DNA of 33,219 nt, from the IMG/VR virus record IMGVR_UViG_3300046533_000211, positions 1 to 33,219 of that record; one strand, written 5' to 3'. Source of the stretch: a virus (lineage: Duplodnaviria > Heunggongvirae > Uroviricota > Caudoviricetes). Below are positions 4,677 to 32,642 of this stretch, piece after piece. The notes under the pieces were generated by a model. The model saw only the letters and a program-made list of their open reading frames with translations, did no database searches and was not told the DNA's origin. Position 1 is the first letter of the stretch. The number at the start of each line of letters is the position of its first letter. The position numbers were made by a program, and so were the translations under genes.

Positions 4677-4725
4677 GGCCTGGTGCCTGGTCGTGCCACC
4701 AATATAACACAGCGCACTAGCAATT
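4677..4725 (-). promoter_or_regulatory. Cassette 1: AATTGCTA-N11-TATATT plus GGCACCAGGCC hairpin
   Basis: Read on the minus strand; box 4718-4725, -10 4701-4706, hairpin core 4677-4687. Confidence 0.85.
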
Positions 4726-4754
4726 ATTCCTGTGGCGCTGGTCACAGGGCGGGA

Positions 4755-4931
4755 TCATGGCTTCGGGCCGACCTGGGCATACTCCTTCGCTATCCGCTGC
4801 AGCATGTCCACCACCCAGTCCATCTTCTGGTTCGTCTGCAAACGGATCGTGCCGTCCGGGTAGACCAGGACCGTCAGAACGGTGTCCTCGGTGTCGATGA
4901 CCTCGACCTTGCGGCCATCCAGGCTGGCCAC
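4755..4931 (-). CDS. Hypothetical protein (58 aa, VASLDGRKVEVID...)
   Basis: Manually translated; GGAG SD; start overlaps the upstream TAG. Confidence 0.55.
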   Translation of the reverse strand: MASLDGRKVEVIDTEDTVLTVLVYPDGTIRLQTNQKMDWVVDMLQRIAKEYAQVGPKP

Positions 4932-5179
4932 TACTTGCTCCTCAGCAGCTTGCGGGTCGCATCCAGCTCAGCGTCACACGCCGAACACTTGTATTCCACG
5001 ATGATCATCAGGCCACGGTCATCGCGCTTGGCCCGCACGTTCTTCTCTAGCCAGTCGAACGGATGCAAGCAGGGCATCTCCAGGGGCGGGGCCGGATTGC
5101 CAGGATCGGGGTTGCGCCGTTGCTCCATCATCTCCAGGAACTCGGCGTAGCTCATCCCCCGGTGGTACTCACGCGCCAT
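4931..5179 (-). CDS. Hypothetical protein with CxxC (82 aa)
   Basis: AGGAGG SD; MPCLH...YKCSAC. Confidence 0.6.
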   Translation of the reverse strand: MAREYHRGMSYAEFLEMMEQRRNPDPGNPAPPLEMPCLHPFDWLEKNVRAKRDDRGLMIIVEYKCSACDAELDATRKLLRSK

Positions 5180-5459
5180 GGTCACCGCCCTCCTTGCCGC
5201 CGCCATACCCTGCCTCGCGCAGGAAACGCTGAGCCGTCATCAGGGGATCGACCACCCCGGTGTAGGCACAGCACTTGGCACACCAGCCCATCTCGATGTC
5301 GTTGGGGTTGTACGAGGTCATCGAGCAGACCGGGCAGGTGATCGAGGGCGGGTCGGTGTAGCGGGGCGGCTTGCCCATCGGGCACCCGCTCTGGCGTCCA
5401 TCCCAGCACCACTCGCGCGGTGTGGGCTTCTGGCAACCAGGACACAGCTTGATGGTCAT
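5169..5459 (-). CDS. Cys-rich putative zinc-binding protein (96 aa)
   Basis: CPGC, CPVC and CAKC motifs; ATGA coupling. Confidence 0.65.
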   Translation of the reverse strand: MTIKLCPGCQKPTPREWCWDGRQSGCPMGKPPRYTDPPSITCPVCSMTSYNPNDIEMGWCAKCCAYTGVVDPLMTAQRFLREAGYGGGKEGGDHGA

Positions 5460-5614
5460 GCGCCCCCCGATGCCACCGAGGACCACTGGGCCAGTCCCGC
5501 AGCGAAGGCGCAGATGATCTGGCCCTGATGATCCCGGCTGATGTCCTCCCAGGCCACGTCCGCACGCTTCCCGTTGCGGAGCGACTCGTAGACGGCCTTC
5601 CCGGCAGCCCTCAT
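5456..5614 (-). CDS. Hypothetical protein (52 aa)
   Basis: ATGA overlaps at both ends. Confidence 0.55.
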   Translation of the reverse strand: MRAAGKAVYESLRNGKRADVAWEDISRDHQGQIICAFAAGLAQWSSVASGGA

Positions 5615-5745
5615 TCGGTCGCTGCCGAGTTCATCTTCCTGTCGAGCCATCCTCGAACTCCTTCCTCGTCATCGTGCGCTTGGCCCTCACGGATCTCGGC
5701 CCGCCAGCGTTCCCTGTCCTCTGCGGTCCAGCCGGTGAGCTTCAT
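5611..5745 (-). CDS. Hypothetical protein (44 aa)
   Basis: ATGA overlaps at both ends. Confidence 0.5.
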   Translation of the reverse strand: MKLTGWTAEDRERWRAEIREGQAHDDEEGVRGWLDRKMNSAATE

Positions 5746-6077
5746 TTCGGGCACCTCGTATGCGTGCGCGGTTTGCCGTTCATCAGGATCGTGAGCATCT
5801 TGCCGCAGCGTGGGCAGGGTGAGTGACCCCGGCGATGGGCGTGCTGCCAGGAACGCACATGGTCCACGTCGTAGCCGGTGGCCCCGCAGATCTTGCAACG
5901 GATCTTCCCGGTCCGCGACCCTGGCAGTGGCTCGAATACCTCCGATACCCAGTAGGCGTCACCACCGATCTCGACACAGGCCCACTGCTCGCCACAATCC
6001 AGGCAGGTCCACCGGTCGCCGTCCACGGCCTCACTCGGGGGTTCACACCAGCCCAGACCCAGCCTGCGGACGCTCAT
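5742..6077 (-). CDS. Multi-zinc-finger protein (111 aa)
   Basis: CLDC, CKIC, HxH and CPRC motifs; TGATG coupling. Confidence 0.65.
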   Translation of the reverse strand: MSVRRLGLGWCEPPSEAVDGDRWTCLDCGEQWACVEIGGDAYWVSEVFEPLPGSRTGKIRCKICGATGYDVDHVRSWQHAHRRGHSPCPRCGKMLTILMNGKPRTHTRCPK

Positions 6078-6376
6078 CAGCCACACCCCGGCAGGGCATC
6101 GCGCACAGCCTGCCCGGTCTGCCAGATGGACTGGCGTCCGTCGCCCTGGTGGAGCCGCTCAGCGATCTCCCCAGGTGACTCCCCGAGGGCGAGCTGGGTG
6201 CAGATGACCCCGTTGAGATCAGGCTGGTCGATGGAGCTGTCCACCCCACCGTTGCCGTACACGTCGGCGTGGGCCTGGCCCTGGCCCAGCGTGAAGCCGA
6301 GGGCGATCCCGCATGCCCAGATGACCATCAGCGTGAACCACAGCAGCCAGCCATGGACGGTGACTCGCTTCCTCAT
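6077..6376 (-). CDS. Secreted/membrane protein, DUF732-like (99 aa)
   Basis: N-terminal hydrophobic segment ending AHA-D; ICTQLALGESP...C pattern. Confidence 0.6.
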   Translation of the reverse strand: MRKRVTVHGWLLWFTLMVIWACGIALGFTLGQGQAHADVYGNGGVDSSIDQPDLNGVICTQLALGESPGEIAERLHQGDGRQSIWQTGQAVRDALPGCG

Positions 6377-7439: not shown

Positions 7440-8420
7440 TCAGACCTCCTTCTCGTTCTCGATGTTCTGGATGGCTGCCTCAAGCTCGGCCACCACCACT
7501 GGGTTGTCGGCGTTCTTCTCGATGTCGGCCCTGATCTGTGCGATGGCCGCGCCGCTGTCGTCACCCATGCCGGGTGCCGTCTCTGTGATCTCATCCCAGC
7601 CTTCGGGCAGCGGCGCTGAGTCGTCCATCTCCAGCTCTGGCGTGGCAGGCCCGCCGTACTGGATGTTCTCGTACATCGACTCGGTCAAGTCCAGGCCCCG
7701 CACATCCACGTCAGGAGTGCCGATGGCGACCTCGTCCTCAATGTCCAGGAAGGACACGCGGGCCTTGTCGATCTGCTCGATGGCCACCTTGTCGATCTCG
7801 ATACCGACCTGCTCGCCTGCCTTCGCCATCTTGGTGGCAGAGGAGCGGGCCACCTTCACGGCTTCCTCCAGGCGCTCGCGCGCTGCGGGGGACAGCATCT
7901 CGCCGATCTGCTTGGCCTTGGCGGCAGCGTCACGGACCTGCTTGACATCCAGGTTCGCCAAGCCCTGTTGCATGTCCTCCATGAGGTCCCGCAGCTCGGC
8001 GCTGATGGCCCGAACAGCTTCCACGTCATCCTGGGCAATGCGCCCGAAGATCACGTTGACGGAGAGTCGCGTCAGCCGCGCCTGCTCGTTGAACCTCTGA
8101 GCCAGTGCACGGGCCTCAGCGATGGCAGCGATCAACTCGGGTGCCCGGTCCTCTGGGCAGAGCTGGCCGAACGCCGACTGGGCGCACACGGTCTTGATCA
8201 TCGAGCGGGCCTTGCTGCGGGTCTTGATGGCAGCCTCATGCTCCTCGGGGTCAATGATGATCCGGGTCGTCTCCCAGCGGGCCACTTCCTCGCCTGCCTC
8301 ATTGATGTGGGTGCCCTCGATCTCACGGGTCCCGTAGCTGATGTTCCCCTTCACGCTGGTGGTTACTGCCACCAGAAGGCCCGGACGGAGCGTCTGGATG
8401 GGGGTGGTGATGGTTGACAT
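7440..8420 (-). CDS. Alpha/beta plus coiled-coil protein of the AAA+ module (326 aa)
   Basis: Long open frame; GAGAGGA SD; has its own cassette; acidic tail. Confidence 0.8.
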   Translation of the reverse strand: MSTITTPIQTLRPGLLVAVTTSVKGNISYGTREIEGTHINEAGEEVARWETTRIIIDPEEHEAAIKTRSKARSMIKTVCAQSAFGQLCPEDRAPELIAAIAEARALAQRFNEQARLTRLSVNVIFGRIAQDDVEAVRAISAELRDLMEDMQQGLANLDVKQVRDAAAKAKQIGEMLSPAARERLEEAVKVARSSATKMAKAGEQVGIEIDKVAIEQIDKARVSFLDIEDEVAIGTPDVDVRGLDLTESMYENIQYGGPATPELEMDDSAPLPEGWDEITETAPGMGDDSGAAIAQIRADIEKNADNPVVVAELEAAIQNIENEKEV

Positions 8421-8449: not shown

Positions 8450-8517
8450 GGCCTGGTGCCAGTCCTGTTGTCGAATATAGCCTACCGGGGTAGCAATTGA
8501 CAAGCTACCCCGGTAGG
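8450..8517 (-). promoter_or_regulatory. Cassette 3: TTGTCA-ATTGCTA-N11-TATATT plus hairpin, inside a 14-bp inverted repeat
   Basis: Box 8491-8498, -10 8474-8479, core 8450-8460; IR arms 8481-8494 and 8504-8517. Confidence 0.85.
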
Positions 8518-8525: not shown

Positions 8526-10118
8526 CTACAGATCCAGCTTGCGGGCTGGGCTGTCGGCCTCGACTGCCTTGGCGGCAGCCTGGGGGCTGGTGGCAGGACG
8601 GGCACGGCCTGCCCACTCCTTGCGGAGCCGGTCGATCTTCTCGGCAGCTGTCTTGGCCAGCGGCACGATGGTCTTGGCTATCCGCAGGATGTCATCCGTG
8701 GTGACCTCGCGGGCATCATCCGCAAAGGAGGTGAACATCGCCTCGGGCACCAGGGCAGCCAGCTCGGCACCCGTGAAGGTATCGGTTGCGTCTGCAATGG
8801 CAGGCAGGTCGATGCCGATGGTGTCGGCGTCCCGCCCGTTGGCCTTCAGTGCTGCAGCCATGACGGCCTCGCGCTCGTCGTGAGTGGGCACGTCGACCCA
8901 CCAGATCTCGTCGAACCTCCCCTTCCTCATCAGCTCCGGGGGCAGCTTGCTGGCGTCGTTCGCCGTGGCAATCACGAACGCGGAACCTTGGCGGTCCTGC
9001 ATCCAGGACAGGATGGCACCCAGTGCGTCGGCAGACACACCACCATCGCCCTGTTCACCCGTGGAACCGGCGAGCGCCTTCTCGATCTCATCCAGCCAGA
9101 CCACGCAGCGACCAATCGCCTCGATCACGCTGAGCGCCTTGCGGAGGTTGCCCTCGCTCTCGCCCACGTACTTGGACTTGAGCGCACCCAGGTCCAGCCG
9201 GATCAGCGGGACGTTCCACTCAGCCGCAAGGGCCTTGGCGCTGTAGGACTTGCCACAGCCTGGGACACCGATGACCATCGTGCCCTTGGGAGCCTGCAGG
9301 CCATAGGCCCGAGCAGCGGGGCTGAAGGCCAGCGACCGGCTGACGAGCCAGGCCTTGTAATCGGGCATGCCGCCCACGATGGACAGGCCACCGGCTGGCG
9401 GGTCGATCCACTCCAGGACACCCTCGCGGGCGATCACACGCTTCTTCTCGCTGGCGATGGTGGCCGGGTCGATCTTGCGGAGCTGGACCAGTGAGCGCGC
9501 GAAGCAGGCTTGCGCTTCCTCACCACTCAGGCCCACGGCTGCGTCGATGGCAGCATCCCGCTGGCCGTTGACTGCCGTCCTCTGCAGCTCCTCGGGCAGG
9601 GATGACACGGTGGCGTCCAGCAGGGCCGCGATCTCCTCACGGTCAGGCAGCGGCCACTCGATCACGGTTGCGTGACCAGCCAGCTCAGCGGGAATGTCGC
9701 CACTGGGGCTGATCACGATCACAGCCTGGGCGTTCTCACGGGCCTGGCCAGGAAGCCAGCGGGCCAGGTTGCGCAGGCGACGCAGTGTCATGGCGCTTGT
9801 CGGACCACTCAGCCACACTGGCAGGTCGCGCATGATCCACACGCCACGCTCACCACTGGTGTCCTTGATGATGTCCAGCGCGCCATCGGGATCGCCCACA
9901 CCCTGGTCTGTGGTCCTGCCGCTGATGCTGGCCACACCTTGGGCAATGTCCCAGGTCCTGGCCAGGTAGCCCGCTGAGGCAGCAGCCTCGAACAGGTACT
10001 TCTCGACCCGCGCTTCCTCGCGACTTACCACCCAGAGGAGTGGGTTGCGGGCACGCAGGAGGGCAGCCACATCAGCGGCAACGGTCTGCGAACGGGTTAC
10101 ATCTGCTTTCACGCTCAT
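8526..10118 (-). CDS. AAA+ ATPase, Ycf46-like (degenerate N-terminal AAA plus active C-terminal AAA; 530 aa)
   Basis: Walker A GVPGCGKS, pore loop KYVGESE, Walker B VVWLDEIEK, SRH ATANDASKLPPELMRKGRFDE. Confidence 0.92.
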   Translation of the reverse strand: MSVKADVTRSQTVAADVAALLRARNPLLWVVSREEARVEKYLFEAAASAGYLARTWDIAQGVASISGRTTDQGVGDPDGALDIIKDTSGERGVWIMRDLPVWLSGPTSAMTLRRLRNLARWLPGQARENAQAVIVISPSGDIPAELAGHATVIEWPLPDREEIAALLDATVSSLPEELQRTAVNGQRDAAIDAAVGLSGEEAQACFARSLVQLRKIDPATIASEKKRVIAREGVLEWIDPPAGGLSIVGGMPDYKAWLVSRSLAFSPAARAYGLQAPKGTMVIGVPGCGKSYSAKALAAEWNVPLIRLDLGALKSKYVGESEGNLRKALSVIEAIGRCVVWLDEIEKALAGSTGEQGDGGVSADALGAILSWMQDRQGSAFVIATANDASKLPPELMRKGRFDEIWWVDVPTHDEREAVMAAALKANGRDADTIGIDLPAIADATDTFTGAELAALVPEAMFTSFADDAREVTTDDILRIAKTIVPLAKTAAEKIDRLRKEWAGRARPATSPQAAAKAVEADSPARKLDL

Positions 10119-10141: not shown

Positions 10142-10194
10142 GGCCTGGTGCCTGATCTCCTGTCGAGGATATGTTACCCCGCTAGCAATTGCAA
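10142..10194 (-). promoter_or_regulatory. Cassette 4: TTGCAATTGCTA-N11-TATCCT plus hairpin
   Basis: Box 10183-10190, -10 10166-10171, core 10142-10152. Confidence 0.85.
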
Positions 10195-10240
10195 GCTCAC
10201 TGAGCGATTGCCTGCACAGAGTTGAGGGTATCCACCGGGT

Positions 10241-10483
10241 ATGACAACTCAGGACCGCAAGCAGGATCGCAACCAGTTCGATGGCGATGCAGCCAATTTC
10301 GCCAACACCGCCCGTGCCCAGCTCAGTGCGTTCATCGACAACCTGGAGCAGATGGTCAGCAAGGGCCGAGATCTCCTGGTGGACATGGACGCGCGACTGG
10401 AGGACTTCGATGGCGGGAGCCGTCGCCTCACGGAGACGGAGACGGAGAAGCGGGAGAAGGTGCGTGCCGGAACTCGTTCTTGA
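10241..10483 (+). CDS. Hypothetical helical protein on the opposite strand (80 aa)
   Basis: Amphipathic, protein-like composition; no SD (possibly leaderless); 56-nt convergent overlap with the HTH gene. Confidence 0.5.
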   Translation: MTTQDRKQDRNQFDGDAANFANTARAQLSAFIDNLEQMVSKGRDLLVDMDARLEDFDGGSRRLTETETEKREKVRAGTRS

Positions 10484-10694
10484 TCTGGAACAGCCGCGCT
10501 GAACTCAGGCCCGTGACACCCATCAGCTGGCCCGAGGTGATGCCGTAGCGCATGGCCTCACGGATGAGTCCTCGCAGCTCCAGCTCGGCATCGAGGGCCT
10601 CCTGGCGCTTCTTGTCCAGCCGCACCGAGGCCTTGGAGATCGCGGCCATCCGGGCCACAGCCCACTCGGAAGTGTTGCGTTTGCGGTTACCCAT
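10428..10694 (-). CDS. Helix-turn-helix DNA-binding protein (88 aa)
   Basis: LIREAMRYGITSGQLMGVTGLSSARLFQIK is a typical phage HTH segment. Confidence 0.65.
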   Translation of the reverse strand: MGNRKRNTSEWAVARMAAISKASVRLDKKRQEALDAELELRGLIREAMRYGITSGQLMGVTGLSSARLFQIKNEFRHAPSPASPSPSP

Positions 10695-10864
10695 CGGTTT
10701 GCTGGCCTTCCTGGTGGCGGGAACCACCGCTGGAGGGTGAACGTAAAAACATACGTTGACCTGGCGAAACGGCGAGTTTAAGAGGGGTGGTGTGGTGGTG
10801 CCCACGAAGGACAAAAGCCGCTCTCGGGGCCGCTGAGGGCCGGCAATCGCTACCTGGGTAGCTA

Positions 10865-11026
10865 TTAACGATCATTAGCTACATCCTCGTCGGGCGCGTC
10901 CCCGAGGTCCTCGATCAGGCCGAGGGCGAGCAGCAGGCTGACCACCCGAAGGCGCAGCCAGTGCAGGCCTTCAGCGATGGTCATGTCTCGCCAGTCGCCG
11001 TATGGCTCGGGGCTGTATCCCGGCAT
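10865..11026 (-). CDS. Hypothetical protein (53 aa, MPGYSPEPYG...)
   Basis: Manually translated; GAGGAG SD. Confidence 0.55.
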   Translation of the reverse strand: MPGYSPEPYGDWRDMTIAEGLHWLRLRVVSLLLALGLIEDLGDAPDEDVANDR

Positions 11027-11357: not shown

Positions 11358-11680
11358 TTGATCACCTCCCCCGGCAGCACGTTCTCGGGCGTGCTCACGC
11401 TGATGCTGAAGGCAGTGAACGGGCGGTTCGGCCTGCCGTCCGGGCGCACCGGGTTCCGTGGGTCCACAGAGCGCCACAGCTCGAACGCTTCCGTGGAGGT
11501 GTAGCGGGTGGCCTCATCGAGGTTGGGTGTGGTGCGCAGGTGGGCCATCATCACCTGGCCGGTGAGCGGCTCCCTTCCGTCACGTGACGGATCGAACTCG
11601 ACCACATACTGCCCGTCGAACCCAGTCACCCCGCCATTGATCAGCCCGACCACCTGGATGACCACCTCAGTGCTGTCCAT
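11354..11680 (-). CDS. Hypothetical protein (108 aa)
   Basis: GAGGAG SD; ends ...RPDGRPNRPFTAF. Confidence 0.65.
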   Translation of the reverse strand: MDSTEVVIQVVGLINGGVTGFDGQYVVEFDPSRDGREPLTGQVMMAHLRTTPNLDEATRYTSTEAFELWRSVDPRNPVRPDGRPNRPFTAFSISVSTPENVLPGEVIK

Positions 11681-12104
11681 CGTTCTCCTCCTCGTTGGCA
11701 GGCTCGGCCAGCCGCGCCAGCGACTGGGCACGGGCGATCTGGCCCATGATCTCGATCAGGCCCAGCATCTCCACCGGGGCCAGTTCATGCTGTGAGATCA
11801 CCCCGGAGCCATCGCCGTTCACGGTCACCTGGAGCAGGCCGAAGCGGTACACCGTGACATGCTCCACGTCGATCCTGCTGGGGCCGATCACGTCGGGCTG
11901 CACAGGCCTCAGCCGCAGCCCGTGGCGCTCCAGCCCCTCCTTGACGGAGTCCAGGTCCTTCTGGCTGAAGCCACGGAAGCTGAGCAGGTCCATCTCGGTC
12001 ATCGCGGTCAGGGCATCCACGCTGCAGACGCCCTCGCGCTTGAGGATGTTGAACGCCCGCACCGTGAGGTCCAGGTCCTCGATCTGGAGCGGCACAATGG
12101 TCAT
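11667..12104 (-). CDS. RNA polymerase alpha-subunit C-terminal-domain homolog fused to an unknown domain (145 aa)
   Basis: IEDLDLTVRAFNILKREGVCSVDALTAMTEMDLLSFRGFSQKDLDSVKEGLERHGL aligns with actinobacterial RpoA CTD ([25 protein letters not shown]...). Confidence 0.88.
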   Translation of the reverse strand: MTIVPLQIEDLDLTVRAFNILKREGVCSVDALTAMTEMDLLSFRGFSQKDLDSVKEGLERHGLRLRPVQPDVIGPSRIDVEHVTVYRFGLLQVTVNGDGSGVISQHELAPVEMLGLIEIMGQIARAQSLARLAEPANEEENDGQH

Positions 12105-12817
12105 CGGGCTAGCGCCTTCCATCGGTCCAGCATCTCCTGCCAGTCGGCCTTCCATCGGGCCAGCGTCCCCTTCCACTCCGCGACCTGCCAGCTGACCTCG
12201 TCCTTGCCTTCCCCTGCGTCACTGAGTTCATTGAGCACATCGAGCAGGTTGGTCATGTCACCAATCACATTGGTGTCCTCGATGTTTGGCGGCTCAGGCA
12301 GCTTGGCCTCGGCCATGATGGCGCGTCGGAAGATCTTGTTCGCCAGCACCCGCAGGATGGCGTGGTCCTCTAGGAAGTCCTGCTGTTCGGCATCGGGCAG
12401 CGGCTCAGCGATCACCACGAGCTGAGCCTTGTCGGTGCTGAAGGTGTACACGCCCTGCGGCCCCTCCTCCTGGGGGTGGCAGTATTCGCAGTCCTCCTCT
12501 GCTCCGGGGTGCATGACGTGGACCTTGCCGCCGTCCGGGCCGGTGAAGGTCAGACTGTCCTCATCGACCGGCTGATGAGTGGCATGCGTGGCAGCCTGAG
12601 CTGGCGGCAACACGTCACCGCCCCATGTCTCCACCTCGACGGCCCTGCGCTCAGGGGTGCGCTCGATGTACTGCGCCGGGGTCACGATGGCGATGCCGCT
12701 GGTCATCTCGGGGTCGATCTCCGGGTGGGTGAACCCACCGTCGTAGCCCTCCATGTCACCATCCGGGTCGTCACCCAGGTCGACGTGCTCCACGTCAAGG
12801 GGTTCATCCTTGGTCAC
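12101..12817 (-). CDS. Acidic hypothetical protein (238 aa)
   Basis: GTG after GGAGGAG; C-terminal 11-aa repeat W..TLARWKA / WQEMLDRWKA. Confidence 0.7.
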   Translation of the reverse strand: MTKDEPLDVEHVDLGDDPDGDMEGYDGGFTHPEIDPEMTSGIAIVTPAQYIERTPERRAVEVETWGGDVLPPAQAATHATHQPVDEDSLTFTGPDGGKVHVMHPGAEEDCEYCHPQEEGPQGVYTFSTDKAQLVVIAEPLPDAEQQDFLEDHAILRVLANKIFRRAIMAEAKLPEPPNIEDTNVIGDMTNLLDVLNELSDAGEGKDEVSWQVAEWKGTLARWKADWQEMLDRWKALAR

Positions 12818-14185: not shown

Positions 14186-14394
14186 GCCGCCCTTCCCCAG
14201 TGCTCACCGCAGTTGACATTCCGACCGCCACAGCAGAACCGAGCCGACTCGGCCCAATCATGCTCAGCCTGCTCGTCGGCCTCAAGGATCTCGCCCACGA
14301 AGTCAACGTCATGCTCGGTCACGGACTCAGGGTTATCGGCCAGTGGCCAGCCCGCCTGCTCCTCCAGGCACAGCACCTCGATCACTCTGATCAT
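14182..14394 (-). CDS. Hypothetical acidic protein (70 aa)
   Basis: ATGA coupling; CCGG..CGEH. Confidence 0.55.
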   Translation of the reverse strand: MIRVIEVLCLEEQAGWPLADNPESVTEHDVDFVGEILEADEQAEHDWAESARFCCGGRNVNCGEHWGRAA

Positions 14395-14546
14395 CGGGCC
14401 GTCTCCCTCGGGACAACATGGCCACAGGTGGCCAGGACAGCATGGACCTTGCCCATGATCTCCACGACCCGGCGGTCCATATGGCACTGCGGACAGTGGG
14501 CGACAAGCGCCAGCTTGCGGGCAGCGTTGGGGCGAGATACTCGCAT
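14391..14546 (-). CDS. Zinc-ribbon protein (51 aa; CPQC...TCGH)
   Basis: Manually translated; GAGGAGG SD; first gene after cassette 6. Confidence 0.6.
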   Translation of the reverse strand: MRVSRPNAARKLALVAHCPQCHMDRRVVEIMGKVHAVLATCGHVVPRETAR

Positions 14547-14572: not shown

Positions 14573-14623
14573 GGCCTGGTGCCGAACTGAGATCATTAAA
14601 CCATACCGGAATAGCAATTGCTA
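14573..14623 (-). promoter_or_regulatory. Cassette 6: palindrome TAGCAATTGCTA, N11, TTTAAT plus hairpin
   Basis: Palindrome 14612-14623, -10 14595-14600, core 14573-14583. Confidence 0.85.
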
Positions 14624-15307: not shown

Positions 15308-15468
15308 CAGTCCACCTCCAGCTGATCAGGGCTGTAGTAGCTCGGGCGGTCCCGGCAGTCCCACAGGACTCCGATGGTGATGGTGCCCTTCGCAAGCACC
15401 TTCACCACGGACCCCTCGCTGGTGCGACCACACAGCCGCACCCGGTCGCCAAACTCTGGTGACCTCAT
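15304..15468 (-). CDS. Small SH3/KOW-like protein (54 aa)
   Basis: Manually translated: FGDRVRL...EGSVVKV...VLWD...YYSPDQLE; ATGA overlap with Ku. Confidence 0.55.
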   Translation of the reverse strand: MRSPEFGDRVRLCGRTSEGSVVKVLAKGTITIGVLWDCRDRPSYYSPDQLEVDW

Positions 15469-16277
15469 GCCGCCTTGCCCTTCACGCTGGCTTCGAGCTT
15501 GGCCAGCAGGTCTGACACGTCAGACGGGGCCACGTCATCGGCCTCGGTGATGTCCAGCTCCACACCTTCAGCCTTGGCCTCGATGAGGCTGGTGAGCCGG
15601 TTCGTGTAGGTGTCCACGTGGGCGTCCTTGTCGAACTTGCCCACCATGCTGGCCACCAGCTTCTCGGCCATGTCCAGTTCGGCGGCACTGTACTCAGCAC
15701 CCAGGCCGGGGACAGTGGCCTCACGGACCTCATCGGCCCAGCGCAGGGTGTGCAGGACCAGAACGCCCTCCACGACCCGGATGGCAGCGATGTGGGTCTT
15801 GGCCCTCATGGTGAACTCGGCAATCGCCACCAGCCCGCTGGACGCCATTGCGTTGGCAAGCAGGGCATACGCCTTGGAGGGCCGCACGGTTTTCTCGCTG
15901 CCGACCTTCCCACCACCCAGGTAGTAGCTGTCCTCGAACATGATGGGGTCGATCTCGGACTGGTCCACGAACTGCAGGATCTCGATCTGCTTCCCACGCT
16001 CGCCCTCCAGCTGGGCCAGATCATCCTCGGTGATGGTGACCAGGCTGCCGCCCACCTCAATGCCCTTGACGATGTCGCCGTAGGCCACATCCTCGCCGCA
16101 TTCCTTGCAGACGCGCTTGAGTGAGATGCCGCCCATGCAGGTCGGGCCGAGTGACCCTGGCCGAGCATGGTGCTGGTGGAAGCTGACATCGTGGTTATCG
16201 GTCGCCTTATAGAGGGCGACTGGGAACTGGACCAGCCCGAAGCCGAGCTGCCCCGTCCAGGTGCTGCGCATTGCCAT
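15465..16277 (-). CDS. ku: Ku DNA end-binding protein (NHEJ / Mu Gam-like)
   Basis: RSTWTGQLGFGLVQFPVALYKAT, CKECGEDVAYGDIVKG, EIDPIMFEDSYYL, LVLHTLRWADEVR. Confidence 0.95.
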   Translation of the reverse strand: MAMRSTWTGQLGFGLVQFPVALYKATDNHDVSFHQHHARPGSLGPTCMGGISLKRVCKECGEDVAYGDIVKGIEVGGSLVTITEDDLAQLEGERGKQIEILQFVDQSEIDPIMFEDSYYLGGGKVGSEKTVRPSKAYALLANAMASSGLVAIAEFTMRAKTHIAAIRVVEGVLVLHTLRWADEVREATVPGLGAEYSAAELDMAEKLVASMVGKFDKDAHVDTYTNRLTSLIEAKAEGVELDITEADDVAPSDVSDLLAKLEASVKGKAA

Positions 16278-16300
16278 GATGATTCCTTTCGATCGGGGCT

Positions 16301-16353
16301 GGCCTGGTGCCTGCCCTCCTGGTCATTAAAGCACAGCGGGCTAGCAATTGCCA
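16301..16353 (-). promoter_or_regulatory. Cassette 7 upstream of ku
   Basis: AATTGCTA 16342-16349, N11, TTTAAT 16325-16330, core 16301-16311. Confidence 0.85.
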
Positions 16354-16372
16354 GCCCACTGCGGGTGATTCG

Positions 16373-16822
16373 TCAGGCGCAATCGCCTGCGTGCTGGGTG
16401 AAGCAGCGCGAGCAGGTGGAGGGCCAGCGCGGCTCCTCTGCCTTGCCCTGACCGAGCGTGCGGAGCTGCCTGGTCCCTACGGGTGAGGTCACGGAGATCT
16501 CGCGGTTGATCTTGGCCAGCTCGGACAGGTGGGCCATGACCGCCCCACGCAGCCCCGGTGACATGTGCCCGGAAGCGAGCAGGTGCCGCAGCGCCAGCGC
16601 CACGTTGCGGGCATGATCTGGCCCGGTGGGCACCCGGCCCTGGAGCACATGCGCCCACTCGTTACGGCGCGCTCTCACGTTGCTCTCGGTGGTGTCTCCC
16701 AGCTCAGCGATCTCCGCATAGGTGAAGCCTGCATCGAGCGCCTGGAGGATCTCGGACAGCCGCAGGTTCGAGCAGTTACGTCCGAGCGTTTCCAGCTCAG
16801 CGGCCTGTGTGGGTGTGTACAT
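16373..16822 (-). CDS. HTH-containing protein with C-terminal CxxCFxxHxGxC motif (149 aa)
   Basis: GFTYAEIAELGDTTESNVRARR HTH; ends CSRCFTQHAGDCA. Confidence 0.7.
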   Translation of the reverse strand: MYTPTQAAELETLGRNCSNLRLSEILQALDAGFTYAEIAELGDTTESNVRARRNEWAHVLQGRVPTGPDHARNVALALRHLLASGHMSPGLRGAVMAHLSELAKINREISVTSPVGTRQLRTLGQGKAEEPRWPSTCSRCFTQHAGDCA

Positions 16823-16849
16823 GCGTGACGACTCCAATCGTTGTGGTCT

Positions 16850-16899
16850 GGCCTGGTGCCAGTTCCTGTGAATCAGGATAGCACACCCCACTAGCAATT
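16850..16899 (-). promoter_or_regulatory. Cassette 8
   Basis: AATTGCTA 16892-16899, N11, TATCCT 16875-16880, core 16850-16860. Confidence 0.85.
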
Positions 16900-16902
16900 A
16901 AA

Positions 16903-16932
16903 GAGGCCCCCCGGAGTTAACCGGGGGGCCTC
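16903..16932 (-). terminator. Intrinsic terminator
   Basis: GAGGCCCCCCGG/CCGGGGGGCCTC 12-bp stem followed by TTTAATT on the minus strand. Confidence 0.85.
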
Positions 16933-16948
16933 AGTGGGGCTGCTCCTC

Positions 16949-17113
16949 TCACATGTAATAGGCATTGTTCTCTGGGTCAGTGCCTGCGCCCTGGACCTCC
17001 ACATAGGCAGCGGGGAGGAAGTCATTCCAGCCAGCTGCTGCGTCGCGCTCGGCGAGGGCTTGGGCGCGAGCGGCCTTGGCCTCGGGGCTGAAGCTCGGGA
17101 TCTTGCGTGACAT
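16949..17113 (-). CDS. Hypothetical protein (54 aa, MSRKIPSFSPE...), apparently monocistronic
   Basis: Manually translated; AGGAG SD; lies between cassette 9 and a terminator. Confidence 0.65.
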   Translation of the reverse strand: MSRKIPSFSPEAKAARAQALAERDAAAGWNDFLPAAYVEVQGAGTDPENNAYYM

Positions 17114-17137
17114 GTCTGCTCCTGGGGGTTCTGGGCT

Positions 17138-17186
17138 GGCCCTGTGCCTGCCCGATACCTAATTAAAACACAGTCGGGTAGGCATT
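17138..17186 (-). promoter_or_regulatory. Cassette 9 (variant AATGCCTA-N11-TTTAAT; GGCACAGGGCC)
   Basis: Same geometry as the other copies. Confidence 0.75.
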
Positions 17187-17193
17187 GCAAGGC

Positions 17194-17340
17194 TCACGTA
17201 GCGGCTTCTGCTGCTGCTGCGTGCATGCAGCGGAAGCACAGGTCGAAGCCTCGGTACGAGGCCAGTGGCCAGCGCTCGTCGCACTGCGGGCAGTGCTTCC
17301 ACGGGAACGGCCCAAGGTGGCCCAGCCTGGTGTCAGGCAT
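17194..17340 (-). CDS. Zinc-finger-like protein (48 aa; CPQC...CFRC)
   Basis: CxxC pairs; short overlap with upstream gene. Confidence 0.5.
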   Translation of the reverse strand: MPDTRLGHLGPFPWKHCPQCDERWPLASYRGFDLCFRCMHAAAAEAAT

Positions 17341-17545
17341 CAGGCGTCCCCAGGTCAAACTCCTCCTCATACATCGGATAGAACTGGCTGAACGGCTCAG
17401 GCTGGCCCTCACTCACACCCACCAGGAACATGGCCAGCAGGCCGGTCAGGTAACCGGCATGGACAGGACTGGGGGCAGCTGCAATGGCCGCGTCGAACTT
17501 GCGGATCTGCTTCTCGACGTTCATGTCGGGCTGAATATTCTTCAC
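17333..17545 (-). CDS. Hypothetical protein (70 aa)
   Basis: GTG after GAAAGGG; first gene after cassette 10. Confidence 0.6.
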   Translation of the reverse strand: MKNIQPDMNVEKQIRKFDAAIAAAPSPVHAGYLTGLLAMFLVGVSEGQPEPFSQFYPMYEEEFDLGTPDA

Positions 17546-17568
17546 ATCAGCACCCTTTCGTTGGGCCT

Positions 17569-17616: not shown

Positions 17617-17618
17617 GA

Positions 17619-21119: not shown

Positions 21120-21253
21120 CGCTTCGGCATCCTGCGGCTGGCGACAACGACCTTGACCACGACCAGGGCCATGCACCACAGCATCACGAACACAGCTACC
21201 AGAGCGGCCAGCCAGAGCACGACCTGCGTCATCGTGTTGGAGATCATCATCAT
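21116..21253 (-). CDS. Small single-pass membrane protein (45 aa)
   Basis: VVLWLAALVAVFVMLWCMALVVV plus basic tail; ATGA overlaps. Confidence 0.55.
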   Translation of the reverse strand: MMMISNTMTQVVLWLAALVAVFVMLWCMALVVVKVVVASRRMPKR

Positions 21254-21933
21254 CGGGGTGGGAACGGCAGGACACTGACACCGGTCATCACGCCAGCCTT
21301 GGGCGTGGGCGTCCTGGAGAAGGTGCGGGCCACCTTGACGAACTGCTCGATCAGGTTCCCCGAGATCCCCTCCTTCCAGCCCTCCTGCACAATCTCGCGC
21401 AGCTCCAGGGGCATCTCGCGGGCGATCTCCAGGCCCAGCTGGATCGCATTCCCGAAGCGTCCCCGCATGGCCTCGGGCTGGGGCCACTCCGTCCACTCGC
21501 CCAGCGTCGGGGGCTTGTCGGGGTAGCGGGCCAGTGGGGCACTGACCATCACGGCACGCTCCCCATCGGCACACATCAGCACGATGTTCTCGGTGCGGTC
21601 GGGCTGCTCCCGCACGGGTGTCTGCATGGTGGCGGTCTTGAGATCGACACCACGTGCCTCTGCTTCCTCGAACGGAATGTCCACCATCCAGGCAGTGGTG
21701 ACTATCACGACCTCGCTGGCGAGTGAGACAGCCAGCGTGGCGGTCATCCACAGCGAGCCTTCGTCCTTGGTGTCGTCGTCGTCCATCACCTGGCCGAGTG
21801 GCATCACCCCCAGGCCCCGTGGCCCTGTGAACAGCATCAGAGGCATGATGTCGGCGTCCGGGGCTTCCAGCTCCTCGCAGCACTCGCGCGACTTGGACTT
21901 GGCGTGCTCGATCAACTCGATCAACTCGCTCAC
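21250..21933 (-). CDS. Hypothetical protein (227 aa)
   Basis: GGGAGGA SD; first gene after cassette 11. Confidence 0.75.
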   Translation of the reverse strand: MSELIELIEHAKSKSRECCEELEAPDADIMPLMLFTGPRGLGVMPLGQVMDDDDTKDEGSLWMTATLAVSLASEVVIVTTAWMVDIPFEEAEARGVDLKTATMQTPVREQPDRTENIVLMCADGERAVMVSAPLARYPDKPPTLGEWTEWPQPEAMRGRFGNAIQLGLEIAREMPLELREIVQEGWKEGISGNLIEQFVKVARTFSRTPTPKAGVMTGVSVLPFPPR

Positions 21934-21958: not shown

Positions 21959-22007
21959 GGCCCGATGCCAGGTCTGGAGTCTAACTATAGCTAGCGCGGT
22001 AGCATCT
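21959..22007 (-). promoter_or_regulatory. Cassette 11 (variant AGATGCTA-N10-TATAGT; GGCATCGGGCC)
   Basis: -10 21984-21989, core 21959-21969. Confidence 0.7.
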
Positions 22008-22023
22008 GACCACCGCTCCAGTC

Positions 22024-22239
22024 TCACACTGGTTCGTGCGGTTTGAAACCGAAATACAGTCGTGGCTGGTGGGTGAACTCCAGCGTGCCCACCACGCCAT
22101 CGGACTTGCGCCTGACGGCCACGTAGGGCGCACCGAAGCCCATCACCTCGAAGTCCTTCTGGAGCTGCTCGGTGTCCCAGGTCTGGCCCTCGGGCTGGTT
22201 GCCCGTGCCGTAGTCCTTGATGTGGATGTCGTCGCTCAT
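22024..22239 (-). CDS. Conserved phage hypothetical protein (71 aa)
   Basis: WDTEQLQKDFEVMGFGAPYVAVRRKSDGVVGTLEFTHQPRLYF; ATGA coupling. Confidence 0.7.
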   Translation of the reverse strand: MSDDIHIKDYGTGNQPEGQTWDTEQLQKDFEVMGFGAPYVAVRRKSDGVVGTLEFTHQPRLYFGFKPHEPV

Positions 22240-22667
22240 GCCATCACCTTCCGACGCACCGGGCTGGTGCCCAGCTCTTGATGCAACGTCAGGGCCTTGG
22301 CCTCGGCCCGTTCCTTGTCAGTGTGCGTGCCGCCGTAGCGCCTCTTGTCACGGGTGCAGATGACGACCTGCCAGCGCGAGCGCCAGCGGTTCCAGGTCAC
22401 ACCCTTCACGTCGCTGACCTTCCCGCGCCCCGGCACTGGGCGCACCTTCTCGGCCTCTGGCGGCGGCAGCGGATGGCCCTCCAGCAGGGCCTTGCGCTCG
22501 TCCTCGGTCTTGCCACCCCAGATCCCGAACTCGATCCCGTGCTCCAGCGCATGATCACCGCAGGCCTGCTGGATCGGACATCGCCCACAGATCGCCTTGG
22601 CCTTCTCGATGGCATCCTTGGTGCCGATGAACCACAGCTCGGGGTCCTCCCCGAAGCAGGCGGTCAT
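22236..22667 (-). CDS. whiB: WhiB-family Fe-S transcription factor fused to an AP2-like DNA-binding domain (143 aa)
   Basis: C-x22-C-x2-C-x5-C plus GIWGGKTEDER; C-terminal SDVKGVTWNRWRSRWQVVI...YGGTHTDKERA fits AP2. Confidence 0.85.
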   Translation of the reverse strand: MTACFGEDPELWFIGTKDAIEKAKAICGRCPIQQACGDHALEHGIEFGIWGGKTEDERKALLEGHPLPPPEAEKVRPVPGRGKVSDVKGVTWNRWRSRWQVVICTRDKRRYGGTHTDKERAEAKALTLHQELGTSPVRRKVMA

Positions 22668-24271: not shown

Positions 24272-24319
24272 GGCCTCTTGCCTGGCTCCTGACTAATATA
24301 GCATAGCGGGGTAGCAATT
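24272..24319 (-). promoter_or_regulatory. Cassette 15
   Basis: AATTGCTA 24312-24319, N11, TATATT 24295-24300, core GGCAAGAGGCC 24272-24282. Confidence 0.85.
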
Positions 24320-24335
24320 ATTCCTGTGATCCGGG

Positions 24336-24506
24336 TCACAGCTCCCGGTATCGTGGCGGGTCGTAGTCATAGCTGGTGATCAGCACGTTGCCAGCCTCGG
24401 TGAGGTAGGCCCGTGCGAAGGTCGGGTCGAATGAGCTGTCATCGACCATCACAGCCGCATCCTGGTCACAGGTCTGCAGCACAGCGATCAGCTCCTTGAC
24501 GGTCAT
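24336..24506 (-). CDS. Hypothetical protein (56 aa, MTVKELIAVL...)
   Basis: Typical phage MTV.ELI..L N-terminus; AAGGAGG SD. Confidence 0.65.
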   Translation of the reverse strand: MTVKELIAVLQTCDQDAAVMVDDSSFDPTFARAYLTEAGNVLITSYDYDPPRYREL

Positions 24507-25126: not shown

Positions 25127-25180
25127 GGCCTGGTGCCGGTCTGGTGAGACAGTACCACAGTGCCTAGTCAGGTAACAATT
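25127..25180 (-). promoter_or_regulatory. Cassette 16 (AATTGTTA-N18-TACTGT; GGCACCAGGCC)
   Basis: Exact hairpin core 25127-25137; spacer longer than in the other copies. Confidence 0.7.
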
Positions 25181-30981: not shown

Positions 30982-31026
30982 GGCCCCTTGCCAAGGTGTG
31001 ATGAGTATAACACCGCACTGTCAATT
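30982..31026 (-). promoter_or_regulatory. Cassette 18 (AATTGACA-N9-TATACT; GGCAAGGGGCC)
   Basis: Box 31019-31026, -10 31004-31009, core 30982-30992. Confidence 0.75.
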
Positions 31027-31047
31027 GCCAGGGGGTGAGCTAAGAGA

Positions 31048-31073
31048 ACGCCCCCAGCCGAAGCTGGGGGCGT
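31048..31073 (-). terminator. Intrinsic terminator with UUCG tetraloop
   Basis: ACGCCCCCAGC-TTCG-GCTGGGGGCGT then TCTCTT on the minus strand, 15 nt after the stop at 31088. Confidence 0.85.
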
Positions 31074-31087
31074 GTCCCTTCAGTGAG

Positions 31088-31564
31088 TTACTCGGCTGCT
31101 GCCCGCGCCTCGCGCCTCGCGGCGACGATGGCCTGGGTGGCCAGCTCAGCGATGCCAGCGACCTGCTCAGTCAGATCGTCCAGCTGTTTGTTCAGCTGAA
31201 CGGTCATCTTCACCGACTCGGGCAACTCGCCCTCGCGGTCCTCCAGGAATGCGTAGTGCTTCTTGCGTCCCCGCCGAACTCCGTCCTCGATCCGCCTGGC
31301 ATGCAGAGCGGAGTCGATGACATATTGGACCTCACCCGCGAGGGTGTAGGTGTGGCCAGTGGCTGGGCAGGCCCACGGGATGATCTGCCCATCGGCCTCA
31401 GCCAACTCGCGGATCTTGCGGAGGATCGTCCGCGCCGACTTGCTGTTGTTGAGGTTCAGCACCGACAGCAGCTGCGCGTAGGTCAGCGGCGTGTTCATGT
31501 ACTGAGCAACCAGCAGGCGGTAGCCCTCCTTGGCCTGGAAGGCAAGAGCTTTCCGACTGGCCAT
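31088..31564 (-). CDS. Putative winged-helix protein (158 aa)
   Basis: LTYAQLLSVLNLNNSKSARTILRKIRE...HTYTL; TGATG coupling. Confidence 0.65.
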   Translation of the reverse strand: MASRKALAFQAKEGYRLLVAQYMNTPLTYAQLLSVLNLNNSKSARTILRKIRELAEADGQIIPWACPATGHTYTLAGEVQYVIDSALHARRIEDGVRRGRKKHYAFLEDREGELPESVKMTVQLNKQLDDLTEQVAGIAELATQAIVAARREARAAAE

Positions 31565-32442
31565 CAGACAGCTCCGTCGTTCAGCAGAGCGGCGAGTTCG
31601 TCGTCCATCGACTTGCCCTGAGCAGCCTCGCGGATGGCATCGAGCACCATCTGCACACTCTCCGCTTCGGTGAGCACCGCATCCCGCGCCTGGCCCTCGA
31701 ACTGACCCAGGCCCCGGATGTCGACCGCGTAGCGCAGCACCGACTGCAGTGCCCGCTTGGCTGCCCGGAATGCAACCACCGCGTTCTCCAGATCAGCGGT
31801 TGAGGTGGCGAAGTCGTCCTTGATCACCCGGCCCTTCTTGGGCTTGACCTTGGCCTCGTCCTCGGCGATCTTCTCGTCGATGGCCTGGCTTGCCGCAATG
31901 GCTGACTTGGGCCTCGACTTGACTGCTGTCGAGACCACCTTGTCAACCGACTTGCGTGGGGCCTTCTCTGGCTCCTGCGGCTCCTCGACGTAGGCCTGGG
32001 CAACCTTCTCATCGGATAGCAGCTGGTCCACGATCTCGGCCTTCTGCTCCACCGACTTGCCCGCCAGCTGCTTGTCGAACGATCCCGTGGTGTGACCTGA
32101 CGGAGGCCATTCGAGATCGGGTGCGATGAACGGGTCACCCGGTGAGACCGGATAGACCCGACCGTTGCGCTTGCGCTTGGTCAGCTCGATGGCTTCCGTC
32201 CACCTGTCGCGATAGAGCTTCACGGTGTCCCTGCTGCGCAGGCCGTGAATCTTCAGCTTCGCGAACTGCTCGAAGCTGAGGACTTCTCTAGAAGTAGAGA
32301 GGTCGGTCCGTTTGCCCTGGCCAGGGGCTTCAGTGAAGGCGTACACGATGGCGGCACGCTCCCATTCCGACGCCGTGACGATCTCACCGAGGCTGGTCAA
32401 CCGGGTGGTTGCCTGCTCAAGGGTCTTCGGGATGTTGCTCAC
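31564..32442 (-). CDS. Phage hypothetical protein with GKRTDL motif (292 aa)
   Basis: Long frame; GTG start overlapping the uORF stop; PGQGKRTDL. Confidence 0.75.
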   Translation of the reverse strand: MSNIPKTLEQATTRLTSLGEIVTASEWERAAIVYAFTEAPGQGKRTDLSTSREVLSFEQFAKLKIHGLRSRDTVKLYRDRWTEAIELTKRKRNGRVYPVSPGDPFIAPDLEWPPSGHTTGSFDKQLAGKSVEQKAEIVDQLLSDEKVAQAYVEEPQEPEKAPRKSVDKVVSTAVKSRPKSAIAASQAIDEKIAEDEAKVKPKKGRVIKDDFATSTADLENAVVAFRAAKRALQSVLRYAVDIRGLGQFEGQARDAVLTEAESVQMVLDAIREAAQGKSMDDELAALLNDGAV

Positions 32443-32477
32443 GTGGCGACCCCCCTGTTCTTCTTCAACAATTTCAT
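32439..32477 (-). CDS. 12-aa leader ORF (MKLLKKNRGVAT)
   Basis: AGGAAGG SD right after hairpin 19; GTGA overlap with next gene. Confidence 0.45.
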   Translation of the reverse strand: MKLLKKNRGVAT

Positions 32478-32496
32478 GCCTTCCTGTTTGGCCCCC

Positions 32497-32543
32497 GGCC
32501 GTTTGCCGAGGTGTGACCACTATAACTCACCCCGGTGTCAATT
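32497..32543 (-). promoter_or_regulatory. Cassette 19 (AATTGACA-N11-TATAGT; GGCAAACGGCC)
   Basis: Box 32536-32543, -10 32519-32524, core 32497-32507. Confidence 0.85.
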
Positions 32544-32597
32544 GCTTCCCCACCTACGACACCAATTTTGGTGGAGTAGAAACCGTTCCCCGGCAGC

Positions 32598-32642
32598 TTG
32601 TCAGACCCCCGAAGTAGGGTCAGGGCACCACGGCATCAGGCC
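32598..32642 (+). promoter_or_regulatory. Cassette 20 on the + strand (TTGTCA-N11-TAGGGT; GGCATCAGGCC)
   Basis: Same geometry in reversed orientation, upstream of the SD and ATG 32658. Confidence 0.75.

Follow-up and report, generated by a model that had tools for sequence, protein, structure and literature searches.

Promoter-embedded operators and repeated early-promoter cassettes are known kinds of phage element, other examples being the conserved inverted repeats of phiC31, the stoperators of Cluster A and the Aca-controlled promoters. In the first two of these, actinophages carry many conserved copies of a short intergenic repressor site; stoperators are asymmetric and oriented with transcription, and the phages in question are temperate, with the sites serving the immunity repressor. 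Stoperators are discussed in PMC4351075, and repeated cassettes are exemplified by the PeSLs of T4-type phages (PMC2839356). The middle promoters of T4 carry a MotA box, (a/t)(a/t)(a/t)TGCTTtA, at 12 +/- 1 bp from the -10 hexamer, and about half of them also possess a TGn extension (PMC2988021). The lambda CII motif, TTGC-N6-TTGC, flanks the -35 position (motif cited in PMC2629481). Here we describe a class of promoters in a 33,219-nucleotide stretch of phage DNA (hereafter, the window), with which a 97-kb IMG/VR virus record begins (IMGVR_UViG_3300046533_000211). These promoters combine an octamer, AATTGCTA or a variant of it (the box), with a host-type -10 hexamer and a short hairpin, placed where the RNA is predicted to begin. 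The box is under selection, and it is best read as the site of a phage regulator. As far as literature searches reach, the motif, the 16-bp unit to which it belongs, its combination with an RNA 5' hairpin and the phage lineage itself are new; a search for the 8-mer returned unrelated primer matches only.

The octamer AATTGCTA occurs nine times in the window against 0.12 expected copies, a number reached by none of 100 shuffled sequences. All of the minus-strand copies are intergenic, are oriented toward the next gene and lie 11 nt 5' of a T(A/T)nnnT hexamer (designated N11; other distances between box and hexamer are given likewise). The eight TTGCTA-N11-TnnnnT sites listed in the original prediction, all on the minus strand, were recovered at 4718, 8491, 10183, 14612, 16342, 16892, 17609 and 24312, and the rest of the 97-kb genome adds two copies (77467 and 80179). 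The variant sites were recovered as well, both those at N11 (AATGCCTA at 17179, AATTGACA at 32536 and, on the plus strand, TTGTCA-N11-TAGGGT at 32598) and the outliers, i.e., AATTGACA at 31019 (N9), AGATGCTA at 22000 (N10) and AATTGTTA at 25173 (N18). No orphan exact boxes were found, each copy being associated with a promoter, and the excess of one-mismatch copies (31 versus 21 expected) approximates the number of true sites. The box is identical at 8/8 positions in 10 genome copies, with near-random spacer and flanks, and a second element, G(C/G)T(A/G), follows it at a constant distance of 4 nt. The constant part of the sites is a 16-bp unit composed of the box, 4 nt and GST(A/G). The box had also been said to extend often to a palindrome. 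The 12-bp palindrome is perfect only at 14612-14623 (TAGCAATTGCTA), and "often" was an overstatement, since the left half of the other copies is weak (C-32 in 10/15 sites, G-33 in 7/15) and indistinguishable from a -35 hexamer TTGCAA at N17. Separately, two box-like 8-mers, AATAGCTA and AATCGCTA, form an inverted pair, 6 bp apart, at 10845-10866, with no -10 hexamer and about 170 nt upstream of a gene for a small helix-turn-helix (HTH) protein; this pair may be a stand-alone operator.

The phage lineage is thinly sampled. None of 33 relatives of its AAA-ATPase (56-70% identity) was accompanied by the box. In IMG/VR, the pattern of box plus hairpin was found only in one related phage, G001, and in one chance match; a 14-base promoter pattern gave single chance matches only, among the matches listed, and peptide patterns of the small HTH protein retrieved nothing, or G001 only. 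In 185,000 bacterial genomes, the box plus hairpin gave 13 single chance matches, with no prophage and no clue to the host. A search of a large protein index was conducted with an alignment of the 82-aa HTH protein (encoded at 42.7 kb of the genome), its paralogue in the window (10431-10694) and the G001 orthologue, and it retrieved 17 homologues, one of which is located on a 53-kb contig (L201/L204, below L204). The first 20 kb of L204 are syntenic with the window between 21.9 and 3.8 kb, the proteins being 60-80% identical, and the syntenic genes include those coding for Ku, a GNAT protein, a homologue of the RNA polymerase alpha C-terminal domain (alpha-CTD) and the AAA-ATPase.

Six orthologous promoter pairs of the window and L204 were aligned as a footprint; they head the 227-aa gene, the Ku gene, the 51/42-aa genes, the ATPase gene, the 326/273-aa genes and the 294/278-aa genes. 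The box matches at 45 of 48 positions, the G(C/G)T(A/G) element at 18 of 24 and the 4-nt gap between them at 14 of 24, compared to 46 of 120 in the 20 nt upstream (box versus flank, Fisher p = 7e-12). In the Ku promoters of both phages, AATTGCTA-N11-TTTAAT is preserved together with TGTG, whereas the spacer and flanks differ, such that both box and hexamer must be selected and simple hitch-hiking is ruled out. The proposal that the box is a functional cis-element of a coordinately organised promoter class is sustained by its 94% retention in the six orthologous promoters, amid randomised flanks; as to the further part of that proposal, we consider it the best reading that a phage regulator has its site there.

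The distance between box and hexamer did not prove to be constant. The 11-nt spacer had been put forward as the defining geometry of the class, but among paralogous and orthologous promoters the distance ranges from 6 to ~21 nt. Each -10 hexamer was assigned from what follows it, either the hairpin 10-16 nt on or a leaderless ATG 6-9 nt on, and the 37 sites in the related phages are then distributed among N11 (19 sites), N6 (6), N9 (5), N10 (4), N18 (2) and ~N21 (1). All of N11, N10, N9 and N18 occur in the window; L204 has four promoters with N11, two each with N10 and N6, and one with N18, and G001 has two with N9, one with N6 and one with ~N21. For the orthologous 294/278-aa gene, the window has an N11 promoter and L204 an N6 promoter, the hairpin having shifted along with the -10. 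The two commonest registers, N11 and N6, are half a helical turn apart and thus on opposite faces of the DNA, and the box lies anywhere from about -41 to -19 relative to the start. A spacing which seems fixed in one genome can therefore dissolve once orthologous promoters are compared. Like the T4 middle promoters, those of this phage exhibit a phage-specific (a/t)3TGCT... box near -30, about 11-13 bp from a host -10, with frequent TGn and with many copies heading prereplicative genes (PMC2988021). They differ from the T4 promoters in that the fixed distance of 12 +/- 1 bp is not kept, a canonical -35 is often present, no MotA/AsiA homologue was found, and the box is carried by every early promoter, with no earlier class visible.

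An information-content profile of 15 N11 sites reveals a single continuous module from -32 to -7. It comprises C-32, AATTGCTA at -31 to -24, G-19 (13/15), T-17 and R-16 (15/15 each), T-15 (10/15), G-14 (12/15), T-12 (15/15), A or T at -11, T-10 and T-7 (14/15), whereas positions -23 to -18 and all those upstream of -36 are near random. The T-17 R-16 T-15 G-14 sequence stands directly 5' of TAnnnT, and we take it to be the TRTG "-16 region" of the extended -10 in Gram-positive SigA promoters; the G-rich positions -6 and -5 presumably fit the corynebacterial consensus. By these sequence features, the core belongs with the ordinary extended -10 promoters of Gram-positive bacteria and actinobacteria (T-17 R-16 T-15 G-14 n TAnnnT). 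At five sites in the window, position -11 is occupied by T instead of A (TTTAAT). The start codon follows 41-53 nt past the -10 hexamer, with the conserved hairpin in between.

Most of the promoters carry the TGn extension, as originally described (TG at -15/-14 in 6/8 exact sites), and the two exact sites that lack it indeed have a -35 hexamer at normal spacing (TTGTCA at N18 for 8491 and TTGCAA at N17 for 10183). More generally, a -35-like hexamer (at least 4/6 matches) is located 16-19 nt 5' of the -10 in 10 of the 18 sites, as opposed to 2.6 +/- 1.5 when the upstream sequence is randomised; because of the shared ancestry of some sites, the 10 equal at least six independent cases, and a stricter consensus scan was passed by only 2 sites. 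These hexamers (TTGTCA, TTGCAA, TTGCCA, TGGTCA and others) are situated at the left edge of the box and overlap it. The sites without TG mostly possess a good -35, namely four of the five such N11 sites and the N10 site at 22007, and the -35 thus appears largely to complement the TG, in the usual trade-off of SigA promoters. The suggestion of a MotA-type replacement of the -35 finds no support, in view of this enrichment, the variable distance and the failure to find a MotA/AsiA homologue. TTGCTA itself, at N11, falls outside the 16-19 nt range of a canonical -35 and, on this evidence, would not be a -35 element with an 11-nt spacer. Two other assignments were rejected: a -10 placed 16-18 nt after TTGCTA, where the hexamers are not -10-like, and a sigma-54 promoter (with the hairpin TGGCAC and the box TTGC as its elements), in which the order would be reversed and the spacing wrong.

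The hairpin that follows the promoter consists of GGC-N5-GCC with flanking pairs, 11-14 nt past the -10. Its 18 copies covary, with compensatory changes in 5/8 pairs; 82% of the cells pair, and 0/500 shuffles reach the observed score. The helix begins 7-10 nt past the -10, where the transcript is predicted to start. U-G pairs are frequent in it, and they can form only in RNA made in the direction of these promoters. The GGC/GCC pairs are invariant, A and G occupy the ends of the loop, and the usual loop is ACCAG. Five minus-strand copies without a promoter (at 7029, 13555, 23467, 23898 and 24016) are each located 10-25 nt before a Shine-Dalgarno sequence; since the hairpin thus also precedes other genes on its own, it is a separate module. 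These features suggest an RNA element recognised by a protein, e.g., a processing, stabilising or translational signal. No Rfam family was matched in the window.

In their general layout, the cassettes resemble the PeSLs of T4-type phages, which are likewise small, repeated combinations of a strong host-type promoter and a stem-loop, set among small accessory genes, with a gene content at the cassettes that varies between relatives (Arbiol et al. 2010, PMC2839356). The stem-loops of PeSLs, however, terminate effectively, whereas the hairpin here has 8 bp, a conserved loop and no T-run or U-tract and is located 3' of the promoter; the only true terminator-like hairpin before a box is that at 16903-16932. 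PeSLs also have no counterpart of the separate invariant box. The window from 16277 to 18170 contains three cassettes and unrelated small genes, compared to one cassette and two other genes at 8680-9480 of L204. By this comparison of sequences, it is a gene replacement bounded by cassettes, as with PeSLs.

The 97-kb genome is ~80% complete, with 64.6% G+C, and near-identical contigs are known from several rhizosphere metagenomes. Contigs from four other rhizosphere runs represent the same phage and are essentially identical, their promoters being without informative variation; the runs listed as containing the phage included no RNA run, and a near-identity search of a phage collection gave zero matches. 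Nearly all genes in the window are carried by the minus strand, from 32.5 kb down to 3.8 kb. The nearest cultured relatives belong to Cluster O of the mycobacteriophages (the Corndog group). The AAA-ATPase shows 53% identity to that of Cluster O, and the Ku and ParB-like genes encoded in the window are also found there, in a long leftward arm with several predicted SigA promoters (PMC4351075). The repeat of Cluster O is, however, a different one, a 17-bp palindrome (TGTTCGG-N3-CCGAACA) located mostly off promoters, and the promoters predicted there are of the canonical kind, in which 17 bp separate a -35 from a -10 (PMC4351075). The alpha-CTD homologue, for which the nearest matches are mycobacterial RpoA proteins, points to a Mycobacterium-like host. 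No gene for a phage sigma factor (sigma region 2) was detected in the ~80% complete genome, in which PF09114 had no match and PF09010 reached only 10.8 bits (E = 0.043), these being the profiles for MotA/AsiA. A T7-type polymerase was not detected either, in a search which was silent in all of its control genomes and thus carries little weight.

The explanation that we favour, albeit tentatively, is that a phage-encoded regulator of host-SigA promoters uses the box as its operator, probably for negative control. The module would then be a portable start cassette for early genes, with a host SigA extended -10 (TRTGnTAnnnT) as its core and the -35 optional. Transcription would start at the foot of the hairpin, which would form the 5' end of the mRNA, followed by the Shine-Dalgarno sequence and the start codon. 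The (A/T)ATTGCTA box, together with G(C/G)T(A/G) 4 nt on, would serve as a separate protein-binding site within the footprint of RNA polymerase, through which a phage regulator would tie ~20 transcription units together. Its effect would most likely be negative and autoregulatory, through early shut-off or as a governor that restrains strong promoters. We infer from the sequences alone that a protein binds the box, which protein this is and in which direction it acts. A fixed and selected sequence within the polymerase footprint, combined with a variable register, argues for an operator rather than a core element or a stereospecific activator site, and the variable register would fit occlusion of the polymerase better than a stereospecific contact. 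The unit is present at every promoter of the early arm, those of the divergent control region included, and no box-free early promoter was seen that might supply an activator beforehand, whereas host-ready promoters that are shut down later would need no phage product at the start. The general marks of an operator thus appear to be combined here, namely independent selection, a location within the polymerase footprint and a co-occurring, conserved DNA-binding protein.

The best candidate for the protein that reads the box is the small 82-88-aa HTH family (phrog_686), with its basic N-terminal arm, long helix and C-terminal HTH; the paralogue in the window has 88 aa (10431-10694, minus strand). 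The gene was found in all of the recovered phage contigs that carry the box unit (G000, the phage of this record, together with G001, L204 and L205-L207). In 6/6 phages it has a leaderless start preceded by a unit that abuts the -10 (N6 in all but two phages, of which one has N10 and the other N11), an arrangement which would suit autoregulation. The recognition helix, LSTPRLYQIK, is almost invariant across 16 homologues, in keeping with a target that is itself invariant. The AlphaFold model, which is confident (pLDDT 90), is made up of a basic arm, a helix of 40 residues and an HTH of two helices. No Pfam family was found for the protein. The lambda CII promoters share with this phage a small HTH protein, a TTGC-containing site near -30 and a poor -35, but here there is a single box with GSTR instead of two TTGC elements 10 bp apart, and the register is variable; no homology is claimed for this likeness.

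Several observations weigh against an operator under negative control. The box is asymmetric and used in one orientation only, and N11 is kept in 4/5 orthologous early-arm pairs, both of which would suit an activator as well. The hexamer TTTAAT, without the canonical A at -11, occurs at seven N11 sites, and both the -35 and the TG are missing from the N6 promoters; sites of both types would be easier to explain with positive help. A search of the genome for tyrosine and serine integrases found none, and there is therefore no lysogeny repressor to invoke. In this respect the box also differs from the stoperators, to which it is otherwise similar, as it is to the phiC31 repeats, in its many highly conserved intergenic copies and, in the case of the stoperators, in its oriented asymmetry: these belong to temperate phages and are located away from promoters as well, while the exact boxes are all associated with promoters. 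The structural model of the small HTH protein had no significant match in the PDB by Foldseek (best E = 0.77), and its HTH class is therefore not established. Finally, the link between this protein and the box consists of their co-occurrence within one poorly sampled lineage.

An activator box is a possible, though rather unlikely, alternative, according to which a phage factor bound there would replace or assist recognition of the -35, as do T4 MotA/AsiA, lambda CII and WhiB7. It would account for the fixed orientation, for N11 as the commonest spacing, for the conservation of the non-canonical TTTAAT in orthologues and for the N6 promoters, and the box resembles the MotA box in both sequence and position (PMC2988021). 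The phage also encodes two proteins from families which touch sigma region 4 or upstream DNA, and these, together with the small HTH protein, would be the candidate activators. The first is a 143-aa WhiB-AP2 fusion (22236-22667, minus strand) with four Cys residues and a GIWGG turn, a Pro-rich linker and an AP2-type DNA-binding domain, which thus would pair a module that binds region 4 of SigA with a monomeric DNA-binding domain and is a rival candidate for the reader of the box. WhiB and sigma region 4 are a textbook pair. The N-terminal part has the C4, C27, C30, C36 and GIWGG pattern of Wbl proteins, in which the four Cys are the ligands of a [4Fe-4S] cluster (PF02467, E = 3e-20), and its E values against the WhiB1, WhiB3, WhiB4 and WhiB7 chains are 1e-10 to 1e-13. 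For the AP2 part, the matches are PF00847 (E = 0.002) and, with E down to 8e-8, HNH-endonuclease PHROGs. The architecture is that of WhiB7, with a sequence-specific module in place of the AT-hook. The second is a free-standing 151-aa alpha-CTD homologue (11667-12122, minus strand), which retains equivalents of R265, N268 and K298 as well as an acidic 261 determinant; it is conserved in L204 (48% identity), and none was found in cultured actinophages.

The activator is opposed by the geometry of the promoters, inasmuch as N6 and N11 would place the bound factor on opposite helical faces and the spacing extends from 6 to ~21 nt, although the targets of WhiA/WhiB tolerate variable spacing and orientation (PMC10243135). 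The enrichment of canonical -35 hexamers that largely complement the TG, the failure to find MotA/AsiA and the fact that no box-free promoter was seen for making the activator first point in the same direction. As for WhiB-AP2 in particular, solved structures of Wbl complexes place the DNA contacts on the upstream side of the -35 and not on its downstream side. The fusion is absent from the first 20 kb of L204, which nevertheless keeps nine unit promoters. It is also rare (5 matches among 5.8 billion protein clusters): one relative (L182) is the same phage, at 99.97% identity, and the only full-length homologue, at 57% identity, is located on a 5.4-kb contig (L181) which has a different promoter motif and no box.

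It appears improbable that the box is an intrinsic element read by the host machinery, i.e., by the SigA holoenzyme with RbpA/CarD or by an abundant host factor, which would yield an unusually strong early promoter. The conserved positions do run unbroken from -32 to -7, TTGCTA and TTGACA resemble a -35, two promoters have the box at the canonical N18, and extra consensus regions are known in T4 early promoters (PMC2988021). The modules contacted by the polymerase are, however, fixed in geometry, while the distance of the box from the -10 changes by up to 15 bp, and box plus hairpin occur in bacterial genomes only as single chance matches. In sigma-70-type holoenzymes, moreover, sigma region 4 cannot reach a box across a spacer of 11 or 6 nt.

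By analogy with T4, the box might also be the DNA anchor of an actinophage takeover of the host SigA polymerase, following the logic of sigma appropriation. A phage factor on the box would substitute for recognition of the -35, in concert with phage proteins aimed at sigma region 4 and the alpha subunit (WhiB-AP2 and the free alpha-CTD), possibly as a position-dependent dual regulator that activates on the N9-N11 face and represses on the N6/N18 face. We regard this as speculative and hold it to be doubtful; if true, sigma appropriation would for the first time have an analogue outside the T4-like phages. The least probable explanation assigns the box no regulatory role of its own, the cassette spreading by duplication and supplying homology for the recombination that shuffles genes, as in the PeSLs of T4-type phages (PMC2839356), and in spite of longer upstream homology within sub-families (e.g., 10190, 77467, 17186 and 80579) and of the exchange of three cassettes with different genes for one cassette in L204 between conserved flanks, it is very hard to sustain, since conversion or descent would keep contiguous tracts, whereas here 8 bp are invariant amid randomised spacers and flanks in both paralogues and orthologues, and 8 bp are too short for recombination homology.

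Very little is known about the timing of early genes in large lytic actinophages, and the present lineage offers a regulon of ~20 promoters with a short, invariant cis-element under selection and a short list of candidate readers, which could be examined in standard surrogate hosts. The cassette of promoter, box and 5' hairpin would also constitute a compact expression part for mycobacteria and corynebacteria.

The individual cassettes in the window, all on the minus strand unless stated otherwise, are distributed as follows. That at 4677-4725 (box 4718-4725, N11, TATATT 4701-4706, hairpin core 4677-4687) heads a 294-aa gene (3769-4653). A CRP-like TGTGA-N6-CCACA with one mismatch lies 5 nt upstream of its box (4731-4746) and is not kept in the L204 orthologue. 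In the cassette at 8450-8503, a -35 hexamer TTGTCA (N18) overlaps the box (8491-8498), which is part of a 14-nt inverted repeat and is followed by TATATT (8474-8479) and the hairpin core (8450-8460); the cassette heads a 326-aa gene (7440-8420), and its L204 orthologue is conserved. The AAA+ ATPase gene (8526-10118), which also has an orthologue in L204, is headed by the cassette at 10142-10195, with a -35 TTGCAA (N17), box 10183-10190, TATCCT 10166-10171 and hairpin core 10142-10152. The perfect palindrome belongs to the cassette at 14573-14623 (N11, TTTAAT 14595-14600, hairpin core 14573-14583), which precedes a 51-aa gene (14391-14546); its orthologue in L204 is likewise N11-TTTAAT.

The Ku gene (15465-16277) is preceded by the cassette at 16301-16349, with box 16342-16349, N11 with TGTG, TTTAAT 16325-16330 and hairpin core 16301-16311. 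At 16850-16932, the terminator hairpin is followed by box 16892-16899, TATCCT 16875-16880 and hairpin core 16850-16860, ahead of a 149-aa gene (16373-16822) with a weakly sigma-region-4-like HTH. A variant cassette at 17138-17186 (AATGCCTA 17179-17186, N11, TTTAAT 17162-17167, hairpin core 17138-17148) heads a 54-aa gene (16949-17113), and another cassette extends from 17569 to 17616 (box 17609-17616, N11 with TGTG, TTTAAT 17592-17597, hairpin core 17569-17579). The variant at 21959-22012 combines a -35 TGGTCA (N17) with AGATGCTA (22000-22007), N10, TATAGT (21984-21989) and a hairpin core at 21959-21969; it heads a 227-aa gene (21250-21933), for which the L204 orthologue has AAGTGTTA-N10-TATAAT.

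The transcription unit with the WhiB-AP2 gene is headed by the cassette at 24272-24340 (box 24312-24319, N11, TATATT 24295-24300, hairpin core 24272-24282), in which a perfect CRP/GlxR-type TGTGA-N6-TCACA (24325-24340) lies 5 nt upstream of the box; neither of the two promoters with a site of this type (24312 and 4718) has a -35. In the variant at 25127-25180, AATTGTTA (25173-25180) occupies the canonical -35 position at N18, upstream of TGg-TACTGT (25149-25154) and a hairpin core at 25127-25137, an arrangement that recurs at position 1320 of L204. The variant at 30982-31026 (AATTGACA 31019-31026, N9, TGt-TATACT 31004-31009, hairpin core 30982-30992) heads the gene for a ParB-like 271-aa protein and that for a 216-aa protein with two HTHs. 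The first leftward promoter of the divergent control region is the variant at 32497-32543 (AATTGACA 32536-32543, N11, TATAGT 32519-32524, hairpin core 32497-32507). The rightward TTGTCA-N11-TAGGGT on the plus strand (32598-32620), with neither the second element nor TG, is the weakest member of the class and an uncertain one.

A divergent pair of DNA-binding genes is located at 42 kb of the genome, outside the window. These genes, which code for the 207-aa and 82-aa proteins, are divergent in this phage (gap at 42652-42750) and in tandem in L204 (1-161), where the box contains the stop codon of the 207-aa gene. Also present in the gap at 42652-42750 is an 18-bp palindrome, TTGGAC-N6-GTCCAA, unrelated to the box. 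The early arm of L204 further codes for an Lsr2 domain fused to an HTH domain (3729-4526), which may bear on the silencing of AT-rich promoter islands in high-GC genomes. Directly after the first leftward hairpin in the window, a 12-codon open reading frame (MKLLKKNRGVAT) is found at 32439-32477 (minus strand). Its stop codon overlaps a GTG inside a 318-aa frame, a possible internal start, and the short frame could encode a leader peptide or serve to couple translation.

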